Shown here: positions 2,327 to 20,791 of the stretch, one piece after another
How the letters are laid out: each line of letters begins with the position of its first letter
How positions within the stretch are numbered: position 1 is the first letter of the stretch
Assembly: GCA_023544525.1 (NCBI GenBank)
Contig: JAMJFU010000001.1
Span: forward strand, 1,259 to 65,258
Source of the DNA: Anaerolineae bacterium
Lineage (GTDB): Bacteria; Chloroflexota; Anaerolineae; JAAYZQ01
Direction: 5' to 3'
Length of the DNA stretch: 64,000 nucleotides
Made by a program: the position numbers and the translations under genes
Notes under the pieces: generated by a model
The model's database searches: none
The model's input: only the letters and a program-made list of their open reading frames with translations
Told to the model about the DNA's origin: nothing

Positions 2327-2330
2327 GATC

Positions 2331-5376: not shown

Positions 5377-6561
5377 ATGGCGGATCGTCTGACCGGTTCC
5401 GAGCAGGACCTCTTTGCCGCAGTGCTGGGCCTGCGGGGTGGTGAGCGGATCAGCGCCTGCTACCAATGCGGGACCTGCTCCGGCTCCTGCCCTACTGCTG
5501 CGATCATGGAGTACAATCCCCGCCGCATCCTCCACATGCTGCGCCTGGGTCTGGGGGAACGCGTGCTCAAGAGCCAGGCAATCTGGCTATGCACTGCCTG
5601 TTACTCCTGTACCGCCCGCTGCCCCCGCGAGATCAAGATCAGCGATGCTATGCTCAGCTTGCGCCGCCTCACAATAGACCGCGGGCTGGATCTGCCCGCG
5701 AACCTGGCGACCATGCGGGATACGGTGACCCACCACCACAACATCTCGGGCGATGACAATGCCAGCCGCCTCATCTGGAGTGACAACCTGGAGGAGGGTG
5801 CTCTTGCCTTCCGGCAGAAGCGCCGTGCAGAGGTTGCTTTCTACGTCGGCTGCGTGGCCTCCTTCTACCCCATGGTCTATGGCATTCCCCAGGCTATGGT
5901 CCAGGTGATGGACCGGGCGGGTGTGGATTTCGCTGCACTTGGCGGTGAGGAATGGTGCTGCGGTTACCCTCTGTACACCGCCGGGATGGAGGGCCTGCTC
6001 GCCGAGCTGATGGCCCATAACGTGGCGCGCGTGCAGGAGATGGGGGCCAAAACCCTGGTGACGACCTGCCCCTCCTGCTATTACACCTGGTCGCACCTCT
6101 ATCCGGAGTTGGAATCCAAGCCCCTTGGCTTCGAGGTGCTGCATGCCTCGCAGTTTCTGGCCCGGCTGGTGGGCGATTCCGCTGTGAAGCTGGGAAGCTT
6201 TGAGCAGACGGTGACCTATCACGATCCGTGCGATCTGGGGCGCAAGAGCGGCATTTTTGACGCCCCGCGGCAGGTCATCGAGGCGATGCCGGGCATTGAG
6301 TTTCGGGAGATGGATGCCCATCGTGAGAACGCTCTTTGCTGCGGCGGGGGAGGGGACGTCCAGATGGTGGACGAACGGGTGACTGAGACGGTCGCTTCGC
6401 GGCGTCTTGGCCAGGCCCAGCAGACGGGCGCGCGGGTGATCCTTTCGGCCTGCCAGCAGTGTAAGCGGACCTTGATGGCTGCCACCCGCCGGGACAAGGT
6501 ACGTATGCGGGTCATGGACCTCTCTGAATTGGTTTTGCGGGCGATGGAGGGCGGAGCATGA
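5377..6561 (+). CDS. Heterodisulfide reductase-like Fe-S protein, HdrC/HdrB fusion (HdrD/GlpC-like; 2x[4Fe-4S] ferredoxin + two CCG domains)
   Basis: CYQCGTCSGSCP and CTACYSCTARCP ferredoxin motifs followed by Cys-rich CCG-type segments (EEWCCGYP, CPSCYY, HDPCDLG, CCGGGG). Confidence 0.75.
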   Translation: MADRLTGSEQDLFAAVLGLRGGERISACYQCGTCSGSCPTAAIMEYNPRRILHMLRLGLGERVLKSQAIWLCTACYSCTARCPREIKISDAMLSLRRLTIDRGLDLPANLATMRDTVTHHHNISGDDNASRLIWSDNLEEGALAFRQKRRAEVAFYVGCVASFYPMVYGIPQAMVQVMDRAGVDFAALGGEEWCCGYPLYTAGMEGLLAELMAHNVARVQEMGAKTLVTTCPSCYYTWSHLYPELESKPLGFEVLHASQFLARLVGDSAVKLGSFEQTVTYHDPCDLGRKSGIFDAPRQVIEAMPGIEFREMDAHRENALCCGGGGDVQMVDERVTETVASRRLGQAQQTGARVILSACQQCKRTLMAATRRDKVRMRVMDLSELVLRAMEGGA

Positions 6562-9500
6562 GAATTGGTGTCTACGTCTGCTACTGTGGATCCAACATCG
6601 CCGGGACGGTGGACGTCGAGGCGGTGGCCAGGTATGCTGAGCAACTGGACGGCGTATTCGTGGCTCGCACCAACAAGTACACCTGTTCCGATCCGGGGCA
6701 GGAGAGCATCCGCCACGACATCTGCGAGTACGGTGTCGACCGGGTGGTTGTAGCTGCCTGCTCGCCGCGCATGCACGAGCGGACCTTCCGCGGGACGCTA
6801 CACTCGGTAGGCCTGAACCCCTACTTTCTGGAGATAGCCAACCTCCGCGAGCACTGTTCCTGGGTGCATACGGACATGGTCACAGCCACGGCCAAGGCAA
6901 AAGACTTGATCCGGGCCGCCGTGGAACGGGTGCGCCGGCACGAACCACTCTATCCTCGCCAGGAACCGGTCACCCGGTCGGCCATGGTGGTCGGCGGGGG
7001 CATCGCTGGCATCCAGGCCGCGCTGGACATCGCCAATTCAGGATACCCGGTCTATCTGGTTGAGCGACAGCCATCTGTCGGCGGGCACATGGCCCAGTTG
7101 GACAAGACCTTCCCCACCCTCGATTGTTCGGCCTGCATCCTCACGCCCAAAATGGTAGACCTTGCGGCGCACCCCAACGTCCACCTGTTGGACTATAGCG
7201 AGGTGGAAGATGTGCAGGGCTATGTCGGCAACTTTCGGGTGAAGGTCCGGCGCAAGCCACGCTACGTCGACGTAGACAAATGCACCGGCTGCGGAACCTG
7301 TGCCGAGGCCTGCCCACGCGAGCTGCCCAGCGAGTTCGACCTGGGGCTCGCCAAACGCAAAGTGATCTACCGGCCCTTTCCCCAGGCAGTGCCCAACGCC
7401 TTTGTGATCGACAAAGTGGGCATTGCACCTTGCCAGAATGCCTGTCCGGCAGGCCAGCATGCCCAGGGCTATATCTCCTACATCCGGGAAGGCCGGTTCG
7501 AAGAGGCCCTGCGCATCATTCGCGAGGACAACCCCTTTGCCAGCGTTTGCGGCCGGACCTGCCACCACCCCTGTGAGGGCAACTGCAACCGGCGCCTGGT
7601 CGACGAGTCCATCGCCATCATGGAGCTGAAGCGCTTTGTGGTGGATTATGTCTATGCCCGGGGTCTGCCACGCCCCATCGAGCCGGTGTCCCAGACGCGT
7701 GAGGAGCGCGTGGCGATCGTTGGCTCTGGGCCCTCCGGCTTGACGGCGGCTCAGCACCTGAACAAGATGGGCTATGGCGTGACCGTGTTCGAGGCGCTCC
7801 CGGTGGCTGGAGGCATGATGCGCACGGGCATCCCGGAGCATCGCTTGCCCAAAGGCATCCTACAGCGCGACATCGACGACATCCTGGCCCTGGGTGTGCA
7901 GTTGCGGCTGAATAGCCCGGTCGGCCAGCCGGCGACACTGCTCAAAGCCCATGGTGGCAATTACGATGCAGTCTATCTGGCAACCGGTGTGAGCCGGACC
8001 ACGAGTCTGGGGATACCGGGCGAAGAACTGACGGGCGTGCTGTCGGGCATCGCGTTTTTGAGGCACGTCAGCCTCGGCCGGCCTGTGCGGATCGGGAAGA
8101 GAGTCGCCGTGGTAGGGGGCGGCATCACCGCCGTGGATGCAGCCACCACGGCCCTGCGCCTGGGGGCTGAAGAGGTGAGCCTGGTCTACCGTCGATCCAG
8201 GGGCGAGATACCGGCCTATTCCTGGGAGCTGGAAGAGGCAGAGGCAGAGGGTGTCCGTCTGTTGACCAACACCGTGGCCACGCGCATCCTGGACAACGAC
8301 GGCTGTGTGAGCGGAATGGAATGTGCCCAGTCGCGGCAGCTGAGCAAGATCGACGACAGTGGCAAGCGGGTGGTCGTGCCCGATCCGGGCACAGAGTTTG
8401 TCATGGAGGTGGACACCGTCATCCGGGCCATCGGCCAGTTCTCCGACCAGGTATTCCTAGAGGAGCCATTCGATACGATGGTGGGTGACCAGGAAACGCT
8501 GGCCACGGGGATCAGCGGGCTCTTTGCCGGCCGCGGGGCTGTCGCGGGTGCTGGGTTCGTCATCAATGCCGTGGCCTCGGGACACGAGGCTGCCCGCTCC
8601 ATCCATCGCTACCTGCAGGGTGAGCCCCTGCAACAGGCGGAGCCCAACAAGCGGCCGGTGGAAAAGTGGACCCGCGAGGAAGCAGAGACCAAGGTGCGGC
8701 TGGGCGCCATCGTACCCACACCACGCCAAGAGCCAGCGCGCCTATCCCTGGAGGAACGGGTAGAGACCTTCCGGGAAGTAGTGCTGCCCCTGACGAAGGA
8801 GCAGGCCATGGCCGAAGCAGCCCGCTGCCTGGACTGTGGCATCTGCTCCGAGTGCTACCGCTGCGTGTGGGCCTGCGAGCGAGAGGCCATCGACCACAAC
8901 ATGCAGGAGCGGGTGGAAGAGCTTGAGGTCGGGGCCATCGTGCTGGCGACGGGTTTCGAGCTGTATGACGCCCGAAATTTGCCGCAATATGGTTATGGAC
9001 GCCATGAGAACGTGTATACTGCGCTGGAGGTGGAGCGGCTGGTCAACGCCAGCGGCCCAACCGGGGGCCACGTCGTCTTGAGAGACGGGCGCGAGCCCGG
9101 CGCCGTGGCCATCCTTCACTGCATCGGCAGCCGGGACCGGCAGCACAACGCCTACTGCTCCCGCGTCTGCTGCATGTACTCGATGAAACTGGCCCACCTG
9201 ATCCGGGAAAAGACCCACGCCCAGGTCTATGAATTCTATTTCGACATTACTGCCTACGGCAAAGGCTATGCCGAATTCTATGAGCGCATCCAGGAGGAAG
9301 GCGTCATCTTTGTGCGGGGCAAGGGCGCCGAGGTCGGAAGAGGGCCCGGTGGCGGCTTGGTCGTCCGCGCCGAGGAGACCCTGCTGGGTGAGATTGTAGA
9401 GATCCCCGTAGACATGGTCGTGCTGTCCACGGCCATGGTGCCCGCCGCCGATGCCGAGCAGCTGGCCCAGCTCTTCCACGTCAGCCGCAGCGAGGATGGC

Positions 9501-9929
9501 TTTTTCCTGGAAGCGCATCCCAAGCTGCGGCCCGTGGAAACCGCCATGGACGGCATTTACCTGGCCGGTACGTGCCAGGCGCCCAAGGACATCCCCGATA
9601 CAGTGTCCCAGGCGAGCGGTGCGGCGGTCCAGGCCGTGGCGCTGCTAAACCGGGGCCAGGTCGAGATCGAACCGATGACCGCTGAAGTACTCCCCCTGCG
9701 CTGCGTTGCCTGTGGCCTATGCGCCGAAGTATGCCCGGCCGGAGCAGTGCGCATGGTCGATACGCGTGGCGGCAGGCTGGCCGAGATCAACCCGGCCCTG
9801 TGCAAGGGCTGTGGCCTGTGCGTCGCCGCCTGCCGGGGCGGGGCGATCACCCTGCACGGCTTTACGGACCAGCAGCTATTGGACCAGTTAACGGCCCTGC
9901 TGCGCCCCGCGGCCCTTGTGCCTGCGTGA
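6558..9929 (+). CDS. hdrA: HdrA-like FAD flavoprotein fused with GltD/NfnB-like NAD(P)H-binding module (HdrL-type), 1123 aa
   Basis: N-terminal Cys-cluster domain (CYCGSNIAG), FAD GxGxxG (VVGGGIAGIQAAL), inserted ferredoxin (CTGCGTCAEACP), internal GltD-like segment (CQNACPAG...RTCHHPCEGNC...IVGSGPSGLTAA...VAVVGGGITAVD), HdrA C-terminal region and CVACGLCAEVCP / CKGCGLCVAAC ferredoxin; ATGA overlap with upstream gene. Confidence 0.8.
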   Translation: MRIGVYVCYCGSNIAGTVDVEAVARYAEQLDGVFVARTNKYTCSDPGQESIRHDICEYGVDRVVVAACSPRMHERTFRGTLHSVGLNPYFLEIANLREHCSWVHTDMVTATAKAKDLIRAAVERVRRHEPLYPRQEPVTRSAMVVGGGIAGIQAALDIANSGYPVYLVERQPSVGGHMAQLDKTFPTLDCSACILTPKMVDLAAHPNVHLLDYSEVEDVQGYVGNFRVKVRRKPRYVDVDKCTGCGTCAEACPRELPSEFDLGLAKRKVIYRPFPQAVPNAFVIDKVGIAPCQNACPAGQHAQGYISYIREGRFEEALRIIREDNPFASVCGRTCHHPCEGNCNRRLVDESIAIMELKRFVVDYVYARGLPRPIEPVSQTREERVAIVGSGPSGLTAAQHLNKMGYGVTVFEALPVAGGMMRTGIPEHRLPKGILQRDIDDILALGVQLRLNSPVGQPATLLKAHGGNYDAVYLATGVSRTTSLGIPGEELTGVLSGIAFLRHVSLGRPVRIGKRVAVVGGGITAVDAATTALRLGAEEVSLVYRRSRGEIPAYSWELEEAEAEGVRLLTNTVATRILDNDGCVSGMECAQSRQLSKIDDSGKRVVVPDPGTEFVMEVDTVIRAIGQFSDQVFLEEPFDTMVGDQETLATGISGLFAGRGAVAGAGFVINAVASGHEAARSIHRYLQGEPLQQAEPNKRPVEKWTREEAETKVRLGAIVPTPRQEPARLSLEERVETFREVVLPLTKEQAMAEAARCLDCGICSECYRCVWACEREAIDHNMQERVEELEVGAIVLATGFELYDARNLPQYGYGRHENVYTALEVERLVNASGPTGGHVVLRDGREPGAVAILHCIGSRDRQHNAYCSRVCCMYSMKLAHLIREKTHAQVYEFYFDITAYGKGYAEFYERIQEEGVIFVRGKGAEVGRGPGGGLVVRAEETLLGEIVEIPVDMVVLSTAMVPAADAEQLAQLFHVSRSEDGFFLEAHPKLRPVETAMDGIYLAGTCQAPKDIPDTVSQASGAAVQAVALLNRGQVEIEPMTAEVLPLRCVACGLCAEVCPAGAVRMVDTRGGRLAEINPALCKGCGLCVAACRGGAITLHGFTDQQLLDQLTALLRPAALVPA

Positions 9930-9964
9930 CCGGGCGCCGGGCCCTATCAAGGAGGAAAGACCCT

Positions 9965-10438
9965 ATGGCCCTCATGACCGGAGACGAGATCCTCGAGATC
10001 GCAACCCGCCTCGAAGAGAACGGCGAGGCATTCTACGCCTCGGCCGCAGATTGTGCGACGACGGCTGGGGTCAAGGCGCTGTTCCGGGACCTGGCGCTGC
10101 AGGAACGCCTCCACCGCCGCGCGTTCGAAGCGATGGCGGGCGGCGAGGTGACGTTGGGTTTTACAGCCGAGCAGCACGAGGAGTTCCTGGCCTACACCGA
10201 CGCGCTCTTGCGCAAGGAGTTCTTTGATGGCAGCGGTGGTGCCCTCGACCGTGCTGCACATGCCGGCGACGAGCGCTCGGTTCTGAAGGCCGCACTGGAA
10301 TTTGAGAAGGAGACTCTCCTCTTCTACCACGAACTCGAGGGAATCGTTGGCAACGCGGATCGGGAAACCGTGGCAGGGATCATCCAGGAGGAGAAGCAGC
10401 ATATCCAGCGCCTGTCAAAGATGCTGGCTGCAGTTTGA
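9965..10438 (+). CDS. Rubrerythrin/ferritin-like diiron protein
   Basis: Four-helix ExxH-type repeats (EENGEAFY, QERLHRRAFE, EFEKETLLFYHELE, EEKQHIQRL); AAGGAGGAAAG RBS upstream of ATG 9965. Confidence 0.7.
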   Translation: MALMTGDEILEIATRLEENGEAFYASAADCATTAGVKALFRDLALQERLHRRAFEAMAGGEVTLGFTAEQHEEFLAYTDALLRKEFFDGSGGALDRAAHAGDERSVLKAALEFEKETLLFYHELEGIVGNADRETVAGIIQEEKQHIQRLSKMLAAV

Positions 10439-10500
10439 GATGCGCTGTGCTCCACCGGTTGGCCATGCGATCGAATGAGGGAAAGAGAAGGACAGGTTGA

Positions 10501-10932
10501 ATGACTGAGAGCTTTGAGCCCAGGATCGTCGGGTTTCTCTGCAACTGGTGTAGTTACGCGGGGGCCGACATGGCCGGCACCAGCCGCATCGCCTATCCGC
10601 CCAACATCCGCATTGTCCGCGTACCGTGCTCGGGACGGGTGGACCCCCTCTTTGTGCTGAAGGCATTCCAGGAGGGGGCCGACGGGGTGCTGGTGGCGGG
10701 CTGCCATCCCGGTGACTGCCACTACGGTGATGGCAACTATCACGCCCGCCGTCGCTACGCCCTGATGCACAGCTTGCTCGATTACGTGGGCGTCGATGCT
10801 GGGCGCCTGCGCATCGACTGGGTGTCGGCCGCCGAGGGCAACCGCTTTGCCCAAGTGGTCGCCGAGTTAACCGAGCAGGTGAGAGAGCTTGGTCCGTGGG
10901 CCGGCCGGCAAGAGCGGGAGGTGGCCGCATGA
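10501..10932 (+). CDS. mvhD: MvhD/FlxD-like hydrogenase-type Fe-S subunit (methyl-viologen-reducing hydrogenase delta family)
   Basis: Near-consensus FlpD/MvhD motifs FLCNWCSYAGADMAG, VRVPCSGRVDP, DGVLVAGCHPGDCHY. Confidence 0.85.
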   Translation: MTESFEPRIVGFLCNWCSYAGADMAGTSRIAYPPNIRIVRVPCSGRVDPLFVLKAFQEGADGVLVAGCHPGDCHYGDGNYHARRRYALMHSLLDYVGVDAGRLRIDWVSAAEGNRFAQVVAELTEQVRELGPWAGRQEREVAA

Positions 10933-11789
10933 GCAGGGAGATCCAGGAGGGCATCCGGGTCCAGGCGCGAGAATTGCTGGGCCTGGGCGAGATATCCTGT
11001 GTGATCGGCTACGAACAAGGTCCGAAGGGCCGCGTCCGGCCGGCATTCGTCTACGATCAGGCTGGCACTGACCGCCTGGTCTGGGACCAGACGTGCCACC
11101 ATAACCTGGTGGTCTACCTGCACGACCGCCGCAAAGGGGGCAAGACCTCCGCGGCGTCCCGGGTGGCCGTGGTTGCCAGGCCCTGTGACGTGCGGGCCCT
11201 GAACGTGTTGATCCACGAGGGACAGGTATCCAGGGAAGAGGTCTTTGTGATCGGCGTGGCCTGCCCGGGCATGGCGGAGGGTGCCACGCTGCAGGCCCAT
11301 TGCCAGCGCTGCCGGGAGCGTGTTCCGGTGTTCTATGACGCCTTGGTCGGCGAGCCGGCCAGGGTCAAGCTCCCTGCCGACGATTGGTCCGACGTGGCGG
11401 AATTGGAGGGGATGACCCCGGCTGAGCGACTGGCCTTCTGGAGCCGCGAATTCGACCGCTGCATCCGCTGCTACGCCTGCCGCCAGGCCTGTCCCGGCTG
11501 TTACTGCTTCGAATGCCTGGCTGAGCAAGTCGATCCAGCCTGGGTCAGCATTGCCCACGGCCTATCGCAGAAGGCCTTTTTCCACGTCATGCGCGCCTAT
11601 CACCTGGCGGGCCGCTGCGTGGAGTGCCAGGCCTGCGACCAGGCCTGCCCGATGCACATCCCACTCAGCCTCCTGAACCGAAAAATCGCCAAAGAGGTGG
11701 AAGCCCTGTTCAACTACAAAGCTGGGGGTGATCCCGAGATCCCACCGCCGCTGGCGACTTTTCTCAAGGACGAGGAGTTGCCGCTTTGA
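10929..11789 (+). CDS. Fe-S cluster protein of HydB/AsrA/FlxB-C family
   Basis: CIRCYACRQACPGCYCFEC and CVECQACDQACP cysteine motifs; ATGA overlap with mvhD stop, GGGAGGTGG RBS. Confidence 0.65.
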   Translation: MSREIQEGIRVQARELLGLGEISCVIGYEQGPKGRVRPAFVYDQAGTDRLVWDQTCHHNLVVYLHDRRKGGKTSAASRVAVVARPCDVRALNVLIHEGQVSREEVFVIGVACPGMAEGATLQAHCQRCRERVPVFYDALVGEPARVKLPADDWSDVAELEGMTPAERLAFWSREFDRCIRCYACRQACPGCYCFECLAEQVDPAWVSIAHGLSQKAFFHVMRAYHLAGRCVECQACDQACPMHIPLSLLNRKIAKEVEALFNYKAGGDPEIPPPLATFLKDEELPL

Positions 11790-11799
11790 AGGAGCACGA

Positions 11800-12810
11800 A
11801 TGAAAGCAACGAGTAGAAGCGACCTGCTGGCCTGGCTCGATGCGCTTTCCGAGCAGTATACGGTGATTGCGCCCCGGATGGTCGACGGAGAGCTGCTCTA
11901 CCGGCCTGTGCACGCCAGCGACGAGGTCGTGCTCGACTTTGAGCGGACGAGGCTATCGGCAAAATCCTATCTCCTGCCCGAGACCGAGGTCATCCTCGAG
12001 ATCGAGAGACAGGAGGGCCAGGTGACGCTGGGCGAACCGAGGCTGGACCGGGATCAGGTAATCCTGCTGCGGCCCTGTGATGCCCGGGCTCTGCGCGCCC
12101 TCGACGCGCTGCTGCTGGATCGCCCACCAGCCGACGCCTACTATGCCGATCGACGCGAGAAGACGAGCTTGATCGGCCTCGCCTGCCCCCAACTCTGGGA
12201 CGATTGTTTCTGTACGAGCCTGGGCAGCGCCCCTGACGATGCTTCGGCCGTGGACGTGATGGTCTATAAAGATGGCGACGCCCACCTGGTAGAGGTGATC
12301 ACAGGCAAGGGCCGGGCCCTGATGGACGGGCTGGAAGCAGAAGAGGTGGAACGACCTACCCCGCACTCTGACAGGTCCGGCGAGCAGATAGCCGTGCTGG
12401 CGCCGGAGGATTGGCCCGGCCTGTTCGACGAGGCCTACTGGCACCAGCTCGCCGAGCGCTGCCTCAGTTGCCACGCTTGCACCTACGTCTGTCCTACCTG
12501 TCGCTGCTTCGATGTGCGCGATGATACGACGGCGGCGGGCGCCAGCTACACGCACATCCAGCGCCTGCGGGCCTGGGATAGCTGCATGGCCAGCGCCTAC
12601 CGGCGCATTGCCGGCGGCCACAACCCACGTCCGGACAAGGCGCAGCGCCTGCGCAACCGCTACTATTGCAAATTCTGCTATTCGCCTTCCGATTTCGGAG
12701 CCGTGGCCTGTGTGGGCTGTGGGCGGTGCATTGAGGTTTGCCCGGTGGGCGTGGATATCGCCGAGATGCTGGCCAACGTGGCTGCCCTGGCCAAAGGGAG
12801 GAGCGCGTGA
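11800..12810 (+). CDS. Fe-S cluster protein, anaerobic sulfite reductase subunit A-like (HydB/AsrA/FlxB-C family)
   Basis: CLSCHACTYVCPTCRCF and CVGCGRCIEVCP motifs, paralogous to preceding gene; GAAGGAG RBS before ATG 11800. Confidence 0.65.
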   Translation: MKATSRSDLLAWLDALSEQYTVIAPRMVDGELLYRPVHASDEVVLDFERTRLSAKSYLLPETEVILEIERQEGQVTLGEPRLDRDQVILLRPCDARALRALDALLLDRPPADAYYADRREKTSLIGLACPQLWDDCFCTSLGSAPDDASAVDVMVYKDGDAHLVEVITGKGRALMDGLEAEEVERPTPHSDRSGEQIAVLAPEDWPGLFDEAYWHQLAERCLSCHACTYVCPTCRCFDVRDDTTAAGASYTHIQRLRAWDSCMASAYRRIAGGHNPRPDKAQRLRNRYYCKFCYSPSDFGAVACVGCGRCIEVCPVGVDIAEMLANVAALAKGRSA

Positions 12811-13634
12811 GCGAGCGAGACAACCCCCTGCGCCCACTGCTGGGCACGCTGGTGGACACCAAGGACCTGGCCGACGACATCAAGCTTTTCCAGATCGAGT
12901 TGAATGGGGACCGCTTTGAGTACCAACCCGGCCAGTTTGCCTTTGTCTCGGCCTTTGGCGTGGGTGAGGCACCCTTTGGTTTGGCCTCGGTATCGTCGCG
13001 GACCCCTGCGCTGGAGTTTGCCATCAACCGCATCGGGACAGTCACCTCGGCCCTGCACGGCCTGGAACGCGGGGCGGTGGTCGGCGTGCGTGGGCCCCTG
13101 GGGAACGCTTTCCCGCTGGATGAGATGCAGGGCAAGAACGTCGTCGTGCTGGGTGGGGGTATCGGTGGCGCGCCCCTGAGGCCGGTCATCCACACCATCC
13201 TGGACAACCGTCCCGATTATGGCCACCTGGATATCCTGTGGGCGGCGCGCAGCCCCTCGCTCCTGGTGTTTACGGACGAATACGACGACTGGCGCTCGGC
13301 GCCCGATACGGAACTGCACCTGACGGTGGACAAGGGAGACAGCGACTGGACAGGGAACGTGGGCCTCATCACCGGACTATTGGAGAAGGCAGCGCCCTCG
13401 CCCGAGGATGCCGTGGCCATCATCTGCGGGCCGCCGATCATGATCAAGTTCACGGTCCTGACCCTGCAAAAGCTCGGCTTCACCGCTGAGCAGATGATCA
13501 TGACGCTGGAAGCCAAGATGAAATGCGGCATCGGCAAATGCGGGCGCTGCAACCTGGGCGAAAAGTTCGTATGCCTGGATGGCCCTGTCTTTTCCTATGC
13601 CCAGGTATCCCATTTCCTGGAGAGTTTCGTCTAG
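12807..13634 (+). CDS. flxA: FAD/NAD(P)H-binding oxidoreductase with C-terminal [2Fe-2S] (HydG/AsrB/FlxA/PyrK-like), GTG start
   Basis: Ferredoxin-reductase-like fold motifs (GQFAFVS, VVVLGGGIGGAPL) and C-terminal CGIGKCGRCN; GTGA overlap with upstream stop and AAGGGAGGA RBS. Confidence 0.7.
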   Translation: MSERDNPLRPLLGTLVDTKDLADDIKLFQIELNGDRFEYQPGQFAFVSAFGVGEAPFGLASVSSRTPALEFAINRIGTVTSALHGLERGAVVGVRGPLGNAFPLDEMQGKNVVVLGGGIGGAPLRPVIHTILDNRPDYGHLDILWAARSPSLLVFTDEYDDWRSAPDTELHLTVDKGDSDWTGNVGLITGLLEKAAPSPEDAVAIICGPPIMIKFTVLTLQKLGFTAEQMIMTLEAKMKCGIGKCGRCNLGEKFVCLDGPVFSYAQVSHFLESFV

Positions 13635-13671
13635 GCTGCCATCACTGTACCTGCTTTGCCAAGGAGGGGAA

Positions 13672-14166
13672 ATGGTCGAGCTTGACGCCCTTCGTCATTG
13701 TGAGCTGTTCGCCGACCTTAGCGACAAAGAGCTTGGGCAGTTGGCGGCCATTGTCTGCGAGGAGAGACACGAGCCCGGGAGCCTCATCTGCGCCGAGCGT
13801 GAGCTTGCCGACCGGCTCTTTGTCCTGAGCAGAGGCAGAGTGCAGCTGCAGATCCGCTTGCGGGGGCACTTGGAGCCTGCAGGCGAGGCAACCATCGAGG
13901 AAGTCGAGCCAGGACGCATATTTGGTTGGTCGTCGCTGGTGAAACAGCGTCGATTTACCGCATCGGCCCGCGCTCTGGATCCCGTAGCCGTCTTGTCTAT
14001 CAGGGCAGATGACCTCCGGGCCCTGTTCGACCAGAGCCCGCATATCGGGTTCGTGGTCATGAAACAACTGGCCGAGGTGGTCGCCTCGCGGCTGCAGCAC
14101 ACCCGCCAGGTCTGCGAGGAGGCAGCGGCAGAGGCAGCGCTGGATGACGGCAGACGCGAAGGCTAG
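13672..14166 (+). CDS. Cyclic-nucleotide-binding domain protein (no recognisable HTH)
   Basis: cNMP-binding fold signature (LFADLSDKEL...GEATIEE...RTASARAL); AAGGAGGGG RBS immediately upstream. Confidence 0.6.
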   Translation: MVELDALRHCELFADLSDKELGQLAAIVCEERHEPGSLICAERELADRLFVLSRGRVQLQIRLRGHLEPAGEATIEEVEPGRIFGWSSLVKQRRFTASARALDPVAVLSIRADDLRALFDQSPHIGFVVMKQLAEVVASRLQHTRQVCEEAAAEAALDDGRREG

Positions 14167-14217
14167 GGCTACCCAAGGGTAGTTGGGAAAATGAATAGCG
14201 CAGCAGGAGGCCGCAGC

Positions 14218-15624
14218 CTATGCTTCCTCTGTCGTCCCGACGTCAGCCCTCGGCAGGCGGACGACGAACTTGCTGCCCAGGCCCGCCTCCGACTCCAGCC
14301 GGATCTCCCCGCCCCAGTTCTCGATCAGCCGCTTCACAATGGCCAGGCCGACACCGGTGCCGACGGGCGACGCCGTTCGGGCATTCTCTGCACGGTAGAA
14401 CTCTTCAAAGATACGGTCCTGATCTTCAGGCGGGATGCCGATCCCGGTATCGCGGACGATTCCAACCACATGCTGTGGTGTCTGTTTCAGCGATACGGCG
14501 ACGATGCCCCCGGGCTCTGTGTATTTGAGGGCATTACTCAGGAGGTTGGTCCACACCAGCTTGAGCCGGTCGGGATGGGCTTGCACCGGTGCCAGGTCTG
14601 GAGCAACGTCCACACTCAGAAAGATGTCCTTGCTGTCTGCCTCGGCCTTCATGAGCTCAACTACGCTTTGAAGCACATCTGCGCTCTGAACCGCAGCCAG
14701 TTGCTCATCCCGGCTGGCCTCCTCGCGCGCCCGGGCCAGCCTCAGCAGGTCCGAGACCAGGTCCGACAGCTCCTCCGTCCGCTCCATGAGCCGTTTCAGG
14801 ACGCCACGCACCTTCTCGGGTGGCAGGTAGCCCGACAACACCAGTTCCATGCTGGTATGGATGGTGTTGATGGGCGCTCGCAGCTCGTGGGTGACGAGGG
14901 TCAGAAACCGGGTGCGTTCCGCGTCGATCCGCCGCAGGCGTTCGTTCAGGACCTCCAATTGCCGGCTCTTGGCCAGAGATGCCTGGTGGCTCTGGAGCAG
15001 CTCACGGTCACGCTGGCGGAGCCGGACGGTGATGGACGAGGTCATATAGGCCACCAGCCAGAGGGTCAGAGCCATGGTCCCTGTTACGGCCAACAGGTAG
15101 CCTGTCATGCGGTACGGCTCTGCGTCCCCGAGCATCGGCAAGTGATAGTGCTGCAGGACGCCGGTAGCCTCGAGTCCGGTCATGGCAGCGAACAGCGCCG
15201 CGGCCACGGTGCCCATCACAAAACTGATGGTGCGCGAGAGCAGGATACTGGCGATGATGGTGTGGAACACAAAAAAGACGGCCATGGGGTTCTCCACGCC
15301 GCCAGAGAAGTGCAGCAGGATGGCCAGCGCGACCAGGTCGAGCAGGATCTGGATACATGCAAAACGCTGTGCCTGTCGCAGCCGGGGCATCCCTGCCGGG
15401 CCCAACATCAGGTTACGGTTGTATAGCCGGAACTGGCTGTTGTAAAGAGCGATGGCTGCCGTGACAGCGATGAGTGGGAGCAGTGGAAGCGCGCCCGGAA
15501 ACAAAAGCCAGCTCAGGGCAATGGCCGAGCCGGTCCCCAAGACGGCGAGCCAGCGCAAGCGGATCAGCCAGCCGATCCGCTCGATGAGCTCGGCCTCGTG
15601 GGGGATTTGGTTTTCCATCAGCAA
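14218..15624 (-). CDS. Sensor histidine kinase with N-terminal multi-TM sensor domain
   Basis: Six predicted TM helices, HisKA H-box (THELRAPIN), HATPase_c motifs (NLLSNALKYT, DTGIGI, GTGVGLAIV). Confidence 0.8.
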   Translation of the reverse strand: MLMENQIPHEAELIERIGWLIRLRWLAVLGTGSAIALSWLLFPGALPLLPLIAVTAAIALYNSQFRLYNRNLMLGPAGMPRLRQAQRFACIQILLDLVALAILLHFSGGVENPMAVFFVFHTIIASILLSRTISFVMGTVAAALFAAMTGLEATGVLQHYHLPMLGDAEPYRMTGYLLAVTGTMALTLWLVAYMTSSITVRLRQRDRELLQSHQASLAKSRQLEVLNERLRRIDAERTRFLTLVTHELRAPINTIHTSMELVLSGYLPPEKVRGVLKRLMERTEELSDLVSDLLRLARAREEASRDEQLAAVQSADVLQSVVELMKAEADSKDIFLSVDVAPDLAPVQAHPDRLKLVWTNLLSNALKYTEPGGIVAVSLKQTPQHVVGIVRDTGIGIPPEDQDRIFEEFYRAENARTASPVGTGVGLAIVKRLIENWGGEIRLESEAGLGSKFVVRLPRADVGTTEEA

Positions 15625-15636
15625 GGCCTGGATAGC

Positions 15637-16044
15637 CTATCCTTGGGTCGCGCCAGCAGGCTCCCCTGCAAAGCGCTCAGCGATCTCGAGGACCTCGCTG
15701 AGTGGAACAGGCTTGTCCAGGAACATGTGGGCCCGCAAAGGCCGGTCGGTGGGAAAGTCGCCAGCATGCTCCGAATCTACAATCGAAGTGAGCATGACGA
15801 CCGGCACATCCCGGAGCTGCGGGTCAGACGCAATCTCCTCAGAGACCCACACCCCTTCCGTGGGCATGCGCATGATGATGTCGAGGAAGACCAGATCGGG
15901 CTTGGCCTCGCGCATCATCTCCAGGCCCAGGCTCCCCTGATGGGCACAACGCACCGTAAAGCCGTTGGCCTGCAGCGCGGCCTGCAGCGCAGCGCACAGA
16001 TCGGGATCATCGTCGATGACCAACACACTTCCTTTTGTCCCCAT
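15637..16044 (-). CDS. Single-domain CheY-like receiver, paralog of 4824..5228
   Basis: VLVIDDDPDL...LVFLDIIM...VVMLTS; GGAGGG RBS upstream of ATG at 16044; same atypical insertion after acceptor Asp as 4824 gene. Confidence 0.7.
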   Translation of the reverse strand: MGTKGSVLVIDDDPDLCAALQAALQANGFTVRCAHQGSLGLEMMREAKPDLVFLDIIMRMPTEGVWVSEEIASDPQLRDVPVVMLTSIVDSEHAGDFPTDRPLRAHMFLDKPVPLSEVLEIAERFAGEPAGATQG

Positions 16045-16335
16045 GGTTCCCTCCAGGTCTACCAGGAATCCGAAGCGACTAAGCGTGGTGCGGTGCTCTA
16101 CTACCATTATAGCACAAGCGACGCGCAGCGCCAAAGTCCGAGATCTCTGCTTGGACCGGCCATGCTTCCGGTCCCGTCCTGGGCTCGCAGGAGGGACATG
16201 GCCTCGCGGCAAGCGGAGGTCGTGCCGGTAGGAGAGGTATCTTCCATTTTTCGGAATGGAATGGGTGTTTCATCCCATATTCCGCACCGGAAGACATAAT
16301 ATGGTAGAGATTTCGAGCCACCTTATCGCCGGCAC

Positions 16336-16364
16336 TTGACAGGACGGCATGCTTGTGATAGACT
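16336..16364 (+). promoter_or_regulatory. Candidate promoter TTGACA-17-TAGACT for fdh/nuoE-like operon
   Basis: Sequence motifs; followed in 5'UTR by inverted repeat GTGACG-N7-CGTCAC (16476-16494). Confidence 0.35.
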
Positions 16365-16586
16365 TCACAGGAATACATGAGACAAAGATTGGGCGATGCC
16401 ACGCCTGGGAGACAGATAGATCTTGAGACCGCTGTGGGTTTGCTCTACGACTGCAGGTCCAAGACATCAAGGAGCGTGACGTAATCAGCGTCACTCCACA
16501 GACACTCATGCGCGAACTCGGAGGTTGCTGCGTCTGAAACGCATCTCTCGCAGACCGCTGATCTTACGAACCTGAGGAGGGATTGT

Positions 16587-17054
16587 ATGGAGCAAGAGAC
16601 ACTGGATTTGGCGCCTTTGTACGAGATGCTGAAGGAGTACAAGACCCAGCGTGGTGCAGTGATCCCAGCGTTGCAGAAGGCCCAGGGCATTTATGGCTGG
16701 CTACCAAAGGAGGTACTGGAGGTTGTCTCGCAAGAGATGCGCGTACCGCTCAGCCAGATCTATGGGGTCGTGACCTTCTATTCACAGTTCTATCTTACCC
16801 GCCGCGGGCGGCACATCTGCCGGCAGTGCGATGGAACCGCCTGTCATGTCAAAGGCGCTGCCGCCATCGTCAGCGCGGCCGAGAAGCACCTCGGCGTCAA
16901 GGCTGGCGAGACGACACCAGACTACGAGGTCACCTTTGAGGTCGTCTACTGCCTCGGTTCCTGCGGCCTGGCACCGGTAGCCATGATCGACGACAAGGTC
17001 ATCGGGCACCTCGTGCCGGAACGGATGGTGGACATTCTGGACAAGTTGGAGTAG
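16587..17054 (+). CDS. NuoE/HoxE/HndA-like thioredoxin-fold [2Fe-2S] subunit
   Basis: CRQCDGTACHVKGA ... VVYCLGSCGLAP motifs. Confidence 0.85.
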   Translation: MEQETLDLAPLYEMLKEYKTQRGAVIPALQKAQGIYGWLPKEVLEVVSQEMRVPLSQIYGVVTFYSQFYLTRRGRHICRQCDGTACHVKGAAAIVSAAEKHLGVKAGETTPDYEVTFEVVYCLGSCGLAPVAMIDDKVIGHLVPERMVDILDKLE

Positions 17055-17216
17055 CTATGAGGAATCGGTGCCCAAGGAGTGGCAGGTACGCGAGCTATCT
17101 TTGCACATCCTCGACACTGGGGGATATCCCCCTGTCCTCTCCACCAGTGAGAGGCTGGCTATACGACTATATCGTCGAAGGCGAGGCAGAGCTCGCCGCT
17201 CGACCATAGGGAGGAA

Positions 17217-17612
17217 ATGATGCCAAAGCTCAAGTCGATTGAGGATCTGAAAGCGGTCCGCGAACAGGCCCAAAGGGATCTGAAGGTGCGCACCGAGACC
17301 GGCACCCGGATCATCGTCGGGATGGGGACATGTGGCATCGCCGCGGGCGCCCGCGAGACAATGCATGCCATCCTCGAGGAACTCGACCGGCAGGGGATCG
17401 AGGCCAATGTCACAACCGTCGGTTGTATCGGCATGTGCTCCAAGGAACCCCTGGTGGACATCGAGCAGGCAGGGCGACCGCGGATCACCTATTGCAACGT
17501 CGATCCCAGCATGGTGCCGCGGCTCATCGAAGAGCACCTGCGCCAGGGCAATGTGGTTTATGAGTGGACGATGGGCCGAGTGCCCAGCGAGGGCATCGGA
17601 CAGAGTTCATGA
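17217..17612 (+). CDS. HndB-like small thioredoxin-fold [2Fe-2S] ferredoxin
   Basis: GMGTCGIAAGA and GCIGMCSKEP motifs. Confidence 0.65.
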   Translation: MMPKLKSIEDLKAVREQAQRDLKVRTETGTRIIVGMGTCGIAAGARETMHAILEELDRQGIEANVTTVGCIGMCSKEPLVDIEQAGRPRITYCNVDPSMVPRLIEEHLRQGNVVYEWTMGRVPSEGIGQSS

Positions 17613-17659
17613 CGAATATGGACTGCGAAATTGGCGGATAGCCATCGGAGGAATCTGTT

Positions 17660-20600
17660 ATGAGCGAAGCATTGCGCCGGGCCAACGTCCTGGTCTGCGG
17701 TGGGACGGGTTGTGAGGCCTCCGGCTCTCACGATACCTTCCAAAGGCTCACCGAGGAGGTGGAGCGGCGGGGCCTTACCAACGAGGTACAGCTGATCCAC
17801 ACTGGCTGCCGGGGGTTCTGCGCCATGGGACCCATTGTGATCATCTATCCGGAAGGGATCTTTTACTGCCAGGTCCAAGGGGAGGACATCCCACTCCTTG
17901 TCGAGGAGACGCTGGTCAAAGGCCATATTGTGGAGCGATTGACCTACAAGGAACCTGCTGCGCATCAGGCGGTGCCCTTCTACAGCCAGATCCCCTTCTA
18001 CGAAAAGCAGAAGCGCATCATCCTGCGCAACTGCGGCATGATCGACCCGGAAAATCTGGAGGAGTATATTGCCCGTGACGGCTACCAGGCCCTGGGCAAG
18101 GTTCTGTCGACGATGACCCCTCGGGACGTCTACGGAGAGGTCAAGGCCTCCAAGCTCCGGGGCCGGGGCGGCGCAGGCTTTCTTACCGGTCTCAAGTGGG
18201 AGTTTACCGCCCGGGCCCAGGCAGAGCCCAAGTACGTCGTCTGCAACGCCGACGAGGGCGATCCTGGTGCCTTCATGGACCGCTCGGTCATCGAAGGGGA
18301 TCCCCATAGCTTGCTTGAGGGCATGATCATCTGCGGCTATGCCATCGGCGCCAGGGAAGGATACGTCTACTGCCGGGCGGAATACCCATTGGCCATCAAA
18401 CGCCTCGAGATCGCCATGGCCCAGGCCGAAGAGTACGGGCTGCTGGGAGACAACATCCTGGGCACCGACTTCTCCTTCCATCTCCATGTGAAGGAGGGAG
18501 CCGGCGCCTTTGTCTGCGGCGAGGAAACGGCGTTGCTGGCCTCCATCGAGGGCCGGCGCGGCGAGCCTCGCCCGCGGCCTCCCTTTCCGGCCGTTGTCGG
18601 CCTGTGGGGCAAGCCCACCAACCTGAACAACGTGAAGAGCTATGCCAGCGTGCCGCAGATCATACTTAACGGGGCAAAGTGGTTCGCCAGCATCGGCTCG
18701 CCCGAATCGCCAGGCACGGCCATTTTTGCGCTCACCGGCAAGGTGAACAACACGGGCCTGGTCGAGGTGCCGATGGGCATCATGTTGGGCGAGATCATCT
18801 TTGACATCGGTGGCGGCATTCCCAACGGCAAACCCTTCAAGGCGGTACAGACCGGCGGGCCTCTGGGCGGCTGTATCCCGGTCCAGCACCTCAACGTGCC
18901 GGTTGACTTTGACTCGCTGAAAGAGGTCGGGGCCGTTATGGGCTCCGGCGGCATGATCGTTGTCGACGAAGACACCTGCATGGTTGAATTCGCCAAGTTC
19001 TTCCTGACCTTTGCCACCGCCGAGAGCTGTGGCAAATGCGTTCCCTGTCGCATGGGCGGCAAGCGCATGCTTGAGGTGTTGACTCGCATCACGGAGGGCC
19101 GGGGCCGGCTGCAAGATCTGGTCACCCTCCGCGAGCTTGCCGCCGGCATGGAGGAAGCTTCGCTGTGTGCCTTGGGCCAGCTGACGCCCGGCCCGGTCAA
19201 GTCCGCACTACAATACTTTGAAGACGAGTTCATCGCCCACATCGTCGATAAGCGCTGCCCCGCGGGCGCGTGCACAAGCCTGGTCCGTGCCCGGTGTATC
19301 AACGCCTGCCCGGCCGACGTGGACGTGCCCAGCTACGTGGCACTGGTGGCCCAGGGCCGCTACGCAGAGGCACTGGAGATCCATCGCCGCACCAATCCCT
19401 TCCCCCTGGTCTGTGGCCGTGTGTGCCCGGCCTTTTGCGAAGACCGCTGCCGGCGGGCCGATATCGACGAAGCGATCGCCATACGTGACGCCAAACGCTT
19501 CATGGCCGATCACGAGTTGGAACGGCCGTGGACGCCGCCGAGATATGGCGAAGCCAAGGACCAAAAGGTTGCCGTCGTCGGCTCCGGGCCGGCGGGGCTC
19601 ACGGCCGCCCTCCGCCTGGCGCAGCAGGGCTACCCGGTCACAGTGTTCGAACAGCTTCCCGCGCCAGGCGGCATGATGGCATTCGGCATTCCGGACTATC
19701 GCCTGCCGCGCGACATTCTGAATGCCGACATCGAAGCCATCACCCGGGCCGGAGTCGAGATCCGCTGCAACCAGGCCCTGGGCCGTGACTTTAGCCTCGA
19801 CTCCCTGTCTGAGGATGGCTACAGTGCCGTGGTGCTGGCCATAGGCGCTCACAAGAGCAGCAAGCTGCGCATCGAGGGCGAGGAAAAGGAAGGCGTCCTG
19901 CCCGGTGTCGACTTTTTGCGGGAGGTGGCCCTGGACAACCCGCCCGATCTCACAGGCAAACGCGTAGGGGTGGTCGGCGGAGGCAATGTAGCCATCGACG
20001 CCGTGCGCACGGCCTGGCGGCTGGGTGCCAGCCAGGTTCACGTCATCTATCGCCGCCTGCGGGAGGACATGCCAGCCTACGAAGAAGAGATCAAGGCTGC
20101 CGAAGAGGAAGGTGCCATCTTCCACTTCCTGACCAATCCCACCCGGGTTCTGGGCGATGGGCATGTGACGGGGGTAGAGTGCCTGGTCCACGAGCCGGGC
20201 GACTTTGACCGGAGCGGTCGCCGTCGTCCGGTGCCGGTCCCAGGCTCAGAGTTCACCCTGGACCTCGACGTGCTCATCCCAGCCATCGGCCAATCGCCTG
20301 ACGTCGAGTGGTTGGCTGGTGATCCGGCAATTGCCCTCCAGCGGAACAACACCTTCGAAGTCAGCGGGGCGCTGTGCACGTCGCGGGAGGGTGTGTTTGC
20401 GGCAGGTGATGCCGTCCTTGGACCGGCTACCGTGGTAGAGGCAGTGGCGCAGGGCAACGAAGTGGCCCGCGCGGTGGATCACTATCTGCGAACCGGGACG
20501 ACGGAAAAGACCGTCATGATGCCTGGCTATGAGGTGGTGGAGCAGCCCTTTGACCTGGACGAATATGCCGATGCGCGCCGGCCTCACAGACCCGAGTTGC

Positions 20601-20791
20601 CGGTCGGCGAGCGTCGTGGCAACTTTCGCGAGGTCGAATTGGGCCTGGACGAAGAGACAGCCCGTGAGGAGTGCAAGCGCTGTCTGCGTTGCGACCTGGA
20701 ATGGTTGGAGACGATGCAGCTTGCGTTTGAGCCTGTCCCCGCGCGCCAGGCATCCAAAGTGTTCTCAGCAAGCAGGAGAGATAACCAATGA
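17660..20791 (+). CDS. NuoF/HoxF-like NAD(H)-binding flavoprotein fused to GltD/NfnB-like NAD(P)H module (formate dehydrogenase diaphorase beta subunit)
   Basis: GRGGAGFLTGLKWEF FMN/NADH motif, C-terminal 4Fe-4S (CGKCVPCR), then GltD-like CINACPA...VCGRVCPAFCEDRC...VVGSGPAGLTAA...VGVVGGGNVAIDA. Confidence 0.8.
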   Translation: MSEALRRANVLVCGGTGCEASGSHDTFQRLTEEVERRGLTNEVQLIHTGCRGFCAMGPIVIIYPEGIFYCQVQGEDIPLLVEETLVKGHIVERLTYKEPAAHQAVPFYSQIPFYEKQKRIILRNCGMIDPENLEEYIARDGYQALGKVLSTMTPRDVYGEVKASKLRGRGGAGFLTGLKWEFTARAQAEPKYVVCNADEGDPGAFMDRSVIEGDPHSLLEGMIICGYAIGAREGYVYCRAEYPLAIKRLEIAMAQAEEYGLLGDNILGTDFSFHLHVKEGAGAFVCGEETALLASIEGRRGEPRPRPPFPAVVGLWGKPTNLNNVKSYASVPQIILNGAKWFASIGSPESPGTAIFALTGKVNNTGLVEVPMGIMLGEIIFDIGGGIPNGKPFKAVQTGGPLGGCIPVQHLNVPVDFDSLKEVGAVMGSGGMIVVDEDTCMVEFAKFFLTFATAESCGKCVPCRMGGKRMLEVLTRITEGRGRLQDLVTLRELAAGMEEASLCALGQLTPGPVKSALQYFEDEFIAHIVDKRCPAGACTSLVRARCINACPADVDVPSYVALVAQGRYAEALEIHRRTNPFPLVCGRVCPAFCEDRCRRADIDEAIAIRDAKRFMADHELERPWTPPRYGEAKDQKVAVVGSGPAGLTAALRLAQQGYPVTVFEQLPAPGGMMAFGIPDYRLPRDILNADIEAITRAGVEIRCNQALGRDFSLDSLSEDGYSAVVLAIGAHKSSKLRIEGEEKEGVLPGVDFLREVALDNPPDLTGKRVGVVGGGNVAIDAVRTAWRLGASQVHVIYRRLREDMPAYEEEIKAAEEEGAIFHFLTNPTRVLGDGHVTGVECLVHEPGDFDRSGRRRPVPVPGSEFTLDLDVLIPAIGQSPDVEWLAGDPAIALQRNNTFEVSGALCTSREGVFAAGDAVLGPATVVEAVAQGNEVARAVDHYLRTGTTEKTVMMPGYEVVEQPFDLDEYADARRPHRPELPVGERRGNFREVELGLDEETAREECKRCLRCDLEWLETMQLAFEPVPARQASKVFSASRRDNQ

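Follow-up and report, generated by a model that had tools for sequence, protein, structure and literature searches.

Two fusion proteins encoded in a 64,000-nt stretch of contig JAMJFU010000001.1 from an Anaerolineae bacterium (the window, meaning the whole of the DNA analyzed) carry the same redox module. Both open reading frames (ORFs) are on the plus strand, inside two operons, and all features below lie on this strand unless stated. The first ORF (6558-9929) encodes an HdrA-like protein of 1123 aa, and the second (17660-20791) encodes a NuoF-like protein of 1043 aa. Judged from their sequences, the two shared segments are copies of a circular permutant of the GltD/NfnB cassette, with a flavin adenine dinucleotide (FAD) site, an NADPH site and two [4Fe-4S] clusters. 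We believed that the likely explanation is a single mobile, permuted NADP(H) redox cassette, acquired independently by HdrA and by BfuB, the NuoF-type core of the second protein, at their ferredoxin exits. The homology, the permutation and the family assignments themselves are close to certain. Genes and domains were called with Pfam, NCBIfam, BLASTP, phmmer against chains of the Protein Data Bank (PDB), and an AlphaFold2 (AF2) model compared by Foldseek.

Residues 290-762 of the HdrA-like protein (copy 1, 7425-8843) and residues 544-1013 of the NuoF-like protein (copy 2, 19289-20698) gave one BLASTP alignment of 484 columns with 42% identity (E 1e-85). Pfam Fer4_20 and Pyr_redox_2/Pyr_redox were detected in both segments (Fer4_20 E 4e-21 and 3e-23). 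The eight cysteines of the two [4Fe-4S] clusters align: C292, C296, C331, C335, C339, C343, C757 and C760 in copy 1, and C546, C550, C585, C589, C593, C597, C1008 and C1011 in copy 2. They form the motifs CxxxCP, CxxxCxxxCxxxC and RCLDC (756-760) in the former, and C546xxxC550P, C585..C597 and RCLRC (1007-1011) in the latter. A lysine at a ligand position of the proximal cluster (K358 / K612), the FAD Rossmann motif GxGxxG (GSGPSG/GSGPAG), the second Rossmann motif GGGxxAxD (GGGITA/GGGNVA) and YRR (544-546 and 797-799) are aligned as well. The motif tables also list FAGRG (656-660) for copy 1 and FAAGD (913-917) for copy 2. The homology ends in a linker and a conserved tail, 'F.EV.L....E.A..E..RCLxC'. 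The window holds exactly two copies of the cassette. A sequence-only reading of this DNA had called the two segments clear paralogs, copies of one GltD/NfnB-like module that have an Fe-S cassette in common. The alignment bears this out, since the similarity reaches well past generic GxGxxG motifs, and all the motif strings quoted there are present. The residue ranges given there (~290-640 and ~545-890) are homologous, but they are too short by about 120 residues and miss the linker and the tail.

The best PDB matches for both cassettes were the middle domains of Caldicellulosiruptor NfnA (9bov_A), Thermococcus sibiricus NfnA (9n5u_A) and Sporomusa StnC (8oh5_C). The NuoF copy matched these chains collinearly through the tail (E 1e-105 to 1e-121), and the HdrL copy, as we name copy 1 after its host family, matched them with E 1e-88 to 1e-114. 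NfnB/NfnL (E 1e-84 to 1e-88), GltD (1e-69) and DPD (1e-38) were weaker. The phmmer match to NfnB chains 4ylf_B and 5jca_L splits in two: the core aligns with NfnB 47-460, and the C-terminal 40 residues align with NfnB 6-43 / 10-49. A profile built from 61 other cassette tails scored 58 and 51 bits on the N-termini of NfnB/NfnL, whereas the best score among 2000 shuffles was 11.8 bits. The AF2 model of residues 529-1043 of the NuoF fusion had a mean predicted local distance difference test score (pLDDT) of 89.3, with 88-96 in the tail. Foldseek placed the NuoF cassette model closest to NfnA/StnC (TM-score on the query, TMq, 0.83-0.86 over ~500 columns), whereas NfnB/NfnL/GltD reached 0.71-0.74. 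The permuted order is CxxxCP, the FAD and NADPH domains, the linker and F.EV..EA.RCLxC, with the N-terminal piece of NfnB moved to the C-terminus. This order was present in 58/58 other tabulated database cassettes, across host proteins.

The permutation break falls between the second and the third Cys of the first cluster motif (CxxC / CxxxCP). RCLxC, with the first two distal-cluster cysteines, sits at the C-terminus, so that both ends of the cassette come together at the distal [4Fe-4S] cluster. Such a meeting would let the cassette drop into a loop, or onto the end, of a host Fe-S protein, and the permutation may be the feature that makes the unit insertable. The solved StnC/NfnA subunits of the Stn/NfnABC transhydrogenases have the same permuted form (PDB 8oh5, 9bov, 9n5u). 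A literature search, with incomplete coverage, found no description of circular permutation of NfnB. Modular reuse of GltD-like units is textbook knowledge (PMC8097209). The alignment to the NCBIfam model TIGR03315 (E. coli YgfK, 'putative selenate reductase subunit') includes the C-terminal tail in both cassettes, so YgfK probably carries the same permuted form.

By its sequence, the HdrA-like protein is HdrL, or type III HdrA, an already known fusion. It was named 'heterodisulfide reductase/glutamate synthase fusion' in Desulfobacterium autotrophicum in 2009 (PMC2702500) and was described in Syntrophobacter (PMC5947623). An HdrA-NfnB fusion was described in ANME-1 (PMC9012536), and 'type III HdrA' was described with an insert at the ferredoxin-reducing domain that may block ferredoxin (PMC12054007). 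Against HdrA 5odc_A (phmmer E 2e-224), the window protein aligns over residues 2-286 and again over about 759-1114, and the segment between them is matched by 9bov_A, 9n5u_A and 8oh5_C. The NCBIfam HdrA2/HdrA matches are also split in two. The module is inserted in HdrA, as had been claimed, and its place can be given exactly: the inserted ferredoxin domain has two Cys motifs, and the module separates them. The first motif, C242-x2-C-x2-C-x3-C252-P (7281-7313), is just upstream of the insertion, and the second, C763-x2-C-x2-C-x3-C773 (RCLDCGICSECYRCVWACEREAI, 8844-8876), directly follows the cassette tail. The unfused HdrA of two related loci (L015, L064) carries the same first motif and has the second about 27 residues on, where the window protein has residues 290-762. 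The mvhD gene (10501-10932) is co-located with HdrL, one gene downstream. An Anaerolineales contig with the HdrL ortholog P0004 (L082:1-7829) also encodes proteins of 1401 aa and 1049 aa with Fer4_20, Pyr_redox_2 and HdrA-like domains; these too are giant proteins that bear the cassette.

The FAD 'GD' motif is degenerate in the HdrL copy, where the Asp is lost (FAGRG, residues 656-660, 8523-8537). The same loss was found in the three nearest HdrL orthologs (P0002, P0004, P0011), and their Cys and Rossmann motifs are kept. One could suppose from this loss that the HdrL copy is degenerate, with Fe-S clusters kept as a wire or to plug the ferredoxin site structurally, and that it no longer binds FAD or oxidizes NAD(P)H. 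We consider this unlikely. GxGxxG, GGM, the NADPH Rossmann motif, YRR, the Lys ligand and the eight Cys are all retained across orthologs that are 57-67% identical, which indicates purifying selection on the nucleotide sites.

The core of the NuoF fusion (residues 1-538, 17660-19273) is of the BfuB/HydB/NuoF type, with Pfam Complex1_51K and NADH_4Fe-4S. It matches the bifurcating NiFe-HydB of Acetomicrobium mobile (7t2r_B) with a phmmer E of 2e-252 (4-543 aligned to 2-541), and StnB/NfnB chains with E 1e-190 to 1e-197. Its parts are an N-terminal 2Fe-2S domain, a flavin mononucleotide (FMN)/NADH domain with DPGAFMD, the N3/B1 [4Fe-4S] site and the Zn-site motif H...C533PAGAC538. The N-terminal 2Fe-2S cysteines, the Bfu-type DPGAFMD (identical), the H...CPAxxC Zn-site motif and GEETAL are all kept (PMC9304861, PMC12018979). 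The Bfu-type residues correspond to A202 and M204 of A. mobile HydB (PMC9304861). The numbering of F182 (A. mobile HydB) and Glu-286 (T. sibiricus NfnB) did not map cleanly, and our claim is limited to DPGAFMD and GEETAL.

Alignment to every HydB/NfnB/StnB chain stops at ~543, and no CxxCxxCxxxCP pair follows in the fusion. Unfused relatives (L073-L077, L080), with a core 70-72% identical and the same NuoE-HndB-NuoF operon, have CxxCxxCxxxCP twice after the Zn-site motif. The cassette thus starts where these relatives have the B3/B4 ferredoxin-like domain. The module had been described as appended to NuoF; it is C-terminal, and more exactly it replaces the 2x[4Fe-4S] ferredoxin-like domain kept in unfused relatives.

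The distribution of the NuoF fusion was scanned with one genome per species, which gave 80 loci, all from records of metagenome-assembled genomes (MAGs). About 70 of them carry the full NuoF::GltD fusion. They belong to Chloroflexota (Anaerolineae), Desulfobacterota, Acidobacteriota, Planctomycetota, Armatimonadota, Poribacteria and Thermoplasmata, and at least 10 full-length clusters exist among the 50%-identity representatives. In the 52 loci with enough downstream sequence, the partner was a NuoG-like protein with NiFe hydrogenase small and large subunits (30), a full selenocysteine (Sec) formate dehydrogenase FdhA (17) or something else (5). The partner varies among close relatives, with FdhA in L001 and NiFe hydrogenase in L002. 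When the literature was searched for GltD or NfnB fused to NuoF, HydB, HoxF or HndC, the results were confined to Stn/NfnABC, HdrA-NfnB and general reviews, and none described such a fusion; subscription papers lay outside these searches, and this absence is no proof of novelty. NCBIfam holds no specific model for the NuoF::GltD fusion, and an exact-sequence look-up of the window protein gave no record. As far as we can tell, the BfuB::GltD fusion may be new, and it is widespread in uncultured anaerobes.

Some further loci bear on this family. A NuoF::GltD fragment (P0107, L083:9-3566) lies at a contig end, directly upstream of MetV (DUF5981) and MetF (MTHFR). Because of this neighborhood, the NuoF-fusion family may also serve methylene-THF reductase. 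Proteins of ~650 aa described as 'NADH_4Fe-4S plus GltD' were considered as a Moorella FdhB-like family, and this was dropped, as the example P0107 is a fragment ending at the contig edge. A second, shorter NuoE-like/NuoF-like pair is found downstream of the fusion operon in L001 (7839-9875) and also in L002, L004, L013, L038 and L049. This pair has no N-terminal domain and no cassette, and a receiver-domain ORF follows it.

The two copies are only ~10 kb apart on the same strand and have every cofactor motif in common. This could suggest that one cassette was copied in this lineage and spliced into a second scaffold, making the two operons a single unit in evolution and in function, and the sequence-only reading had proposed such a duplicated module. 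A neighbor-joining tree (numpy) of 65 cassettes, with 396 columns and 200 bootstraps, points elsewhere. The window NuoF copy falls in a 100% clade of NuoF fusions and the window HdrL copy in a 95-100% clade of HdrL proteins; each thus groups with same-scaffold fusions of other phyla, and the pair are not sisters. Their identity to each other ranks about 48th-50th of 64. In the core they are 46% identical, whereas identity to MvhD-, OYE- or POR-fused or stand-alone cassettes is 50-55%. The DNA of the two cassette coding regions showed no meaningful similarity beyond one 62-nt stretch at 71%.

Gene order in relatives points the same way. In loci whose NuoF fusions are 78-81% identical, no HdrL occurs inside 10 kb. 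The L081 contig, with an HdrL 84-87% identical, keeps the Hdr-Flx gene order and then continues with other genes. Relatives with 78-87% identical proteins thus lack both operons together inside 10 kb. L015 and L064 have a similar Hdr-Flx cluster upstream of the NuoF fusion, but their HdrA is free of the insert. A local duplication is, on these grounds, highly improbable. On sequence evidence, the cassettes were acquired independently and long ago by two separate fusion families, with no duplication in this genome. NuoF fusions and HdrL proteins each split into several separate clades in the tree, which fits repeated capture of the cassette. A database search with the HdrL cassette returned more than 7000 homologs at E < 1e-20. 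The best were Anaerolineae HdrL orthologs with 56-84% identity, and at 43-50% identity there were MvhD-, ferredoxin-, OYE-, DHOD- and POR-gamma-fused, stand-alone and NuoF-fused proteins.

Both copies carry GGGxxAxD and then (V/I)YRR, as in the NADPH-using NfnB, NfnL, StnC and NfnA. E. coli GltD has the same GGGxxAxD and YRR, and the basic pair RR/RK binds the 2'-phosphate in DPD and GltD structures. By analogy with these enzymes, the cassettes probably use NADPH. The natural reading, as proposed earlier, is that the cassette gives each complex a point of entry or exit for NAD(P)H. The same proposal had included NADH/NADPH discrimination between the two copies. Inspection of the second Rossmann motif did not support this, because both copies carry the NADPH-type signature.

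A split of this kind, with one copy using NADH and the other NADPH and the Hdr and Fdh branches on different pools, has some points in its favor. Two HdrL orthologs (P0004 and P0011) have LDR/FDR instead of YRR, which shows that the site can change within the HdrL family, and NADH use has been argued for archaeal type III HdrA (PMC12054007). However, the GXGXXG motif of that study is not diagnostic, because it is also present in the FAD Rossmann of every cassette, and the two window copies resemble NADPH enzymes. We regard the split as quite unlikely. A distinction between NADH and NADPH is more likely within each complex, with the cassette as one site and, as the other, either the FMN site of NuoF or the FNR-type subunit that resembles FlxA.

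The FAD of the cassette could also be a second bifurcating flavin, as in NfnB of NfnAB, which would give two bifurcation sites per complex. The fold and the FAD-site residues match NfnB, the conserved Arg of ...YRLP is present, and such a role was proposed for ANME-1 HdrA-NfnB (PMC9012536). However, the proximal-cluster ligand position holds Lys in both window copies, as in 59/65 cassettes, and not the Glu of NfnB/NfnL. In StnC this non-Cys ligand position is K170; it is Lys in StnC/NfnA and Glu in bifurcating NfnB (PMC10482914). The closest relatives in sequence and fold are StnC/NfnA, whose FAD is reported to be non-bifurcating and to feed the cluster chain (PMC10482914, PMC9304861), and no NfnA-like partner is bound at the cassette. 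We doubt strongly that the cassette bifurcates, and its FAD would have a non-bifurcating role. The Arg said to protect the flavin N5 was tried as a bifurcation marker and rejected: it is conserved in 64/65 cassettes and does not discriminate.

HdrA and BfuB each form the flavin/Fe-S core of an electron-bifurcating family. Along the sequence, the cassette takes exactly the place from which each host normally delivers low-potential electrons to ferredoxin, namely the inserted ferredoxin domain of HdrA and B3/B4 of BfuB. The clusters B3/B4 are the low-potential path and the ferredoxin site in NfnABC (PMC12018979, PMC11829005), and the inserted ferredoxin domain is the ferredoxin-reducing site of HdrA (PMC12054007). 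We propose that the clusters of the cassette would continue the chain of the host to an FAD in hydride exchange with NADP(H), which would then be hard-wired at the exit in place of ferredoxin, or besides it. That it replaces ferredoxin, a reading drawn from the domain order, may be the case, with the chances roughly balanced or slightly below that.

The NuoF fusion would work with NuoE, the HndB-like protein and the selenocysteine FdhA encoded beside it. In this formate enzyme, formate/CO2 at Sec-FdhA would be connected both to NAD(H), through the FMN, and to NADP(H), through the FAD of the cassette. Three sites would likewise be connected in the Hdr-Flx complex: the HdrD-like subunit for a disulfide, the FlxA-like subunit for NAD(P)H and the cassette for NADP(H). 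The two nicotinamide reactions might form a bifurcation or confurcation of small span, which would be sensible at low formate or H2, or they might merely be alternative outlets. NADP(H) is about -380 mV in vivo. An example reaction would be 2 formate (or H2) + NAD+ + NADP+ <-> 2 CO2 (or 4 H+) + NADH + NADPH. Fermenting and syntrophic Anaerolineae and Desulfobacterota see formate at micromolar levels or little H2; the potential of the donor would then fall between those of the two nicotinamide pools, and for this reason a coupling of NAD and NADP would be useful. It is possible, though we hold it as a minority view, that the permuted NADPH cassette replaced or capped the ferredoxin exit in two unrelated scaffolds, HdrA and BfuB, so that bifurcation or confurcation would run without ferredoxin, NADP(H) being the partner at low potential and NAD(H) or the disulfide the one at high potential.

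Several points weigh against acquisition of an NADP(H) cassette at ferredoxin exits. Position in the sequence does not prove position in space. The BfuB cassette could dock elsewhere and feed the mid-potential path as in Stn, and ferredoxin could bind at another site. Formate at standard potential reduces both NAD+ and NADP+ without coupling. The nucleotide specificity is read from motif analogy, and the flavin site of HdrL may be altered, because the conserved Asp of its GD motif is lost. The deep branches of the cassette tree have bootstraps below 50%, and the tree is of the neighbor-joining and not the maximum likelihood kind.

Operon 1 (5377 to 13634) encodes, in order, an HdrD-like protein, the HdrA-like protein, a rubrerythrin-like protein, MvhD, two Fe-S proteins and an FNR/PyrK-type subunit. 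The HdrD-like subunit (5377-6561) has a 4Fe-4S dicluster (Fer4_8/9/17) and two CCG domains (Pfam CCG E 8e-31), the equivalent of a fused HdrC/HdrB; such a gene also precedes HdrL in the close relative L081. A small rubrerythrin/ferritin-like protein (9962-10438, Pfam Rubrerythrin E 3e-9) follows HdrL, in the same place as in L081. The MvhD (FlxD-like) [2Fe-2S] subunit has Pfam FlpD (E 2e-56). The FlxC-like Fe-S protein (10896-11789) matches Pfam 4Fe-4S dicluster families and is kept with HdrA in L015 and L064. The FlxB-like Fe-S subunit (11800-12810), similar to AsrA and sulfhydrogenase beta, has Pfam Fer4_22 (E 2e-30), and its NCBIfam matches to ShyB and AsrA (E 1e-46 to 1e-48) are under the curated cut-offs. 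The last subunit (12738-13634) is of the FNR/PyrK type (FlxA/AsrB/HydG-gamma-like), with FAD, NAD(P)H and [2Fe-2S] sites (Pfam NAD_binding_1, DHODB_Fe-S_bind, FAD_binding_6) and NCBIfam matches to hydrogenase gamma and AsrB. Its L081 ortholog has 275 aa, and the true start of the window ORF is probably near 12807.

Operon 2 begins with a NuoE/HydC/BfuC-type [2Fe-2S] subunit (16587-17054, Pfam 2Fe-2S_thioredx E 1e-49, full length), which is the first operon gene across related loci. The next gene (17217-17612) encodes a small HndB-like thioredoxin-fold [2Fe-2S] protein, assigned from its position and a weak NCBIfam 2Fe-2S ferredoxin match; the Pfam scan gave no match. Nearly every locus, whether it has the fusion or not, keeps this gene between NuoE and NuoF. 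The NuoF-like fusion is followed by the formate dehydrogenase catalytic subunit FdhA (20788-23490), which has a NuoG/BfuA-like N-terminal Fe-S region and was assigned from an in-frame ORF pair and homologs. FdhA is a selenoprotein, as its in-frame TGA (21856-21858) lies in the motif HCARL-U-HS and the two parts (20788-21855 and 21868-23490) share a frame. ORF callers will split FdhA in two at this TGA. A second small rubrerythrin/ferritin-like protein (23541-24035) comes after FdhA and is conserved there in L001, L010, L044, L050 and L058. The two rubrerythrin-like ORFs (9962-10438 and 23541-24035) were considered as a second shared part and rejected, their similarity being merely remote.

Between the operons, operon 1 is followed by a cNMP-binding ORF, and the minus strand encodes a histidine kinase and a response regulator. 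The histidine kinase (14218-16212) is directly upstream of the NuoE operon. The same arrangement was found in L007, L008, L011, L017, L019, L020, L022, L028, L037, L048, L053 and L065, which include many Desulfobacterota and others, several of them with a response regulator too. This recurrence directly upstream suggests dedicated regulation of the NuoE operon. Just upstream of the Hdr operon, at 14-4483, there are HypF-, HypD- and HypE-like ORFs for NiFe hydrogenase maturation. The NuoEF operon of the window is partnered with FdhA and not with a hydrogenase.

The HdrA half of this finding is ordinary, because reuse of the GltD module is established and the name HdrL dates from 2009. The possible novelty is the BfuB::GltD fusion of at least 70 species-level genomes from seven phyla, in which an NADPH flavoprotein stands in place of the ferredoxin-reducing end seen by recent cryogenic electron microscopy. 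The common logic of one permuted NADPH cassette capping two different ferredoxin exits is also new as far as we can tell. If NADP(H) does substitute for ferredoxin, these fusions would be a natural experiment on the Bfu mechanism, asking whether the flavobicluster still gates two paths. They would also be a new class of hydrogenase/formate dehydrogenase that balances the NADH and NADPH pools directly. The inference of H2 and formate metabolism from MAGs of Anaerolineae and Desulfobacterota would change, where the fusion genes are at present annotated merely 'NuoF' or 'FAD-dependent oxidoreductase'.

The window systems can be set beside several known ones. HdrL (D. autotrophicum; Syntrophobacter fumaroxidans Sfum_0824), type III HdrA and ANME-1 HdrA-NfnB share the HdrA core and a ~470-500 aa GltD/NfnB-like insertion in the inserted ferredoxin domain. 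They also share mvhD in the cluster and a proposed link to NAD(P)H. The window differs in its context of HdrD-like, FlxABCD-like and rubrerythrin-like genes in an Anaerolineae-type genome, and its subclade has the degenerate GD motif. No selenocysteine was seen in the window HdrL. In FlxABCD-HdrABC of sulfate reducers (Hdr/Flox, PMC5947623), an FlxA-like FNR, an AsrA-like Fe-S protein and MvhD also lie near hdr. All Flx domain types are present in the window, and the comparison is one of domain types alone, with all NCBIfam scores of these Flx/Hdr genes below the curated cut-offs. However, HdrB and HdrC are fused in the window (HdrD-like), and HdrA carries the extra NADPH cassette, so the window Hdr-Flx complex would have two pyridine-nucleotide sites.

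The NuoF fusion is nearest to StnABC/NfnABC (8oh5, 9bov, 9n5u), which have the same permuted cassette, the Lys ligand position and a BfuB/BfuC core with FMN. In these complexes the cassette is in BfuA (NuoG-like), between the 2Fe-2S domain and the NuoG-like part, BfuB keeps B3/B4 and the pterin domain is dead. In the window, the cassette is on BfuB, replacing B3/B4, or in HdrA, and BfuA is a live Sec-FdhA; in most fusion relatives, BfuA is a NuoG-like protein with NiFe hydrogenase. The large subunit of NfnAB/NfnSL (NfnB, formerly SudA), GltD and DPD share the fold, Fer4_20, FAD and the NADPH site with YRR. However, they are unpermuted, with RCLxC at the N-terminus, form separate subunits or N-terminal domains, and NfnB has Glu where the window copies have Lys. 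Bfu formate dehydrogenases and NiFe-HydABCSL (Acetomicrobium mobile, 7t2r) have the NuoE/NuoF/NuoG-like architecture and the NuoF core, and the BfuA-like N-terminus of the window FdhA resembles 'type 1 Fdh-Bfu' (PMC9304861). In the window, however, BfuB has the NADPH cassette instead of its C-terminal ferredoxin-like domain, and there is an extra HndB-like subunit. The NADP-dependent FdhAB of Moorella thermoacetica was compared by description and not by alignment. It combines Sec-FdhA with a subunit that has Fe-S clusters and a GltD-like NADP domain (PMC5736913), but its FdhB is described without an FMN/NuoF domain, and there is no NuoE. One cassette homolog (P0037) is annotated in the database as 'formate dehydrogenase (NADP+) beta subunit'.

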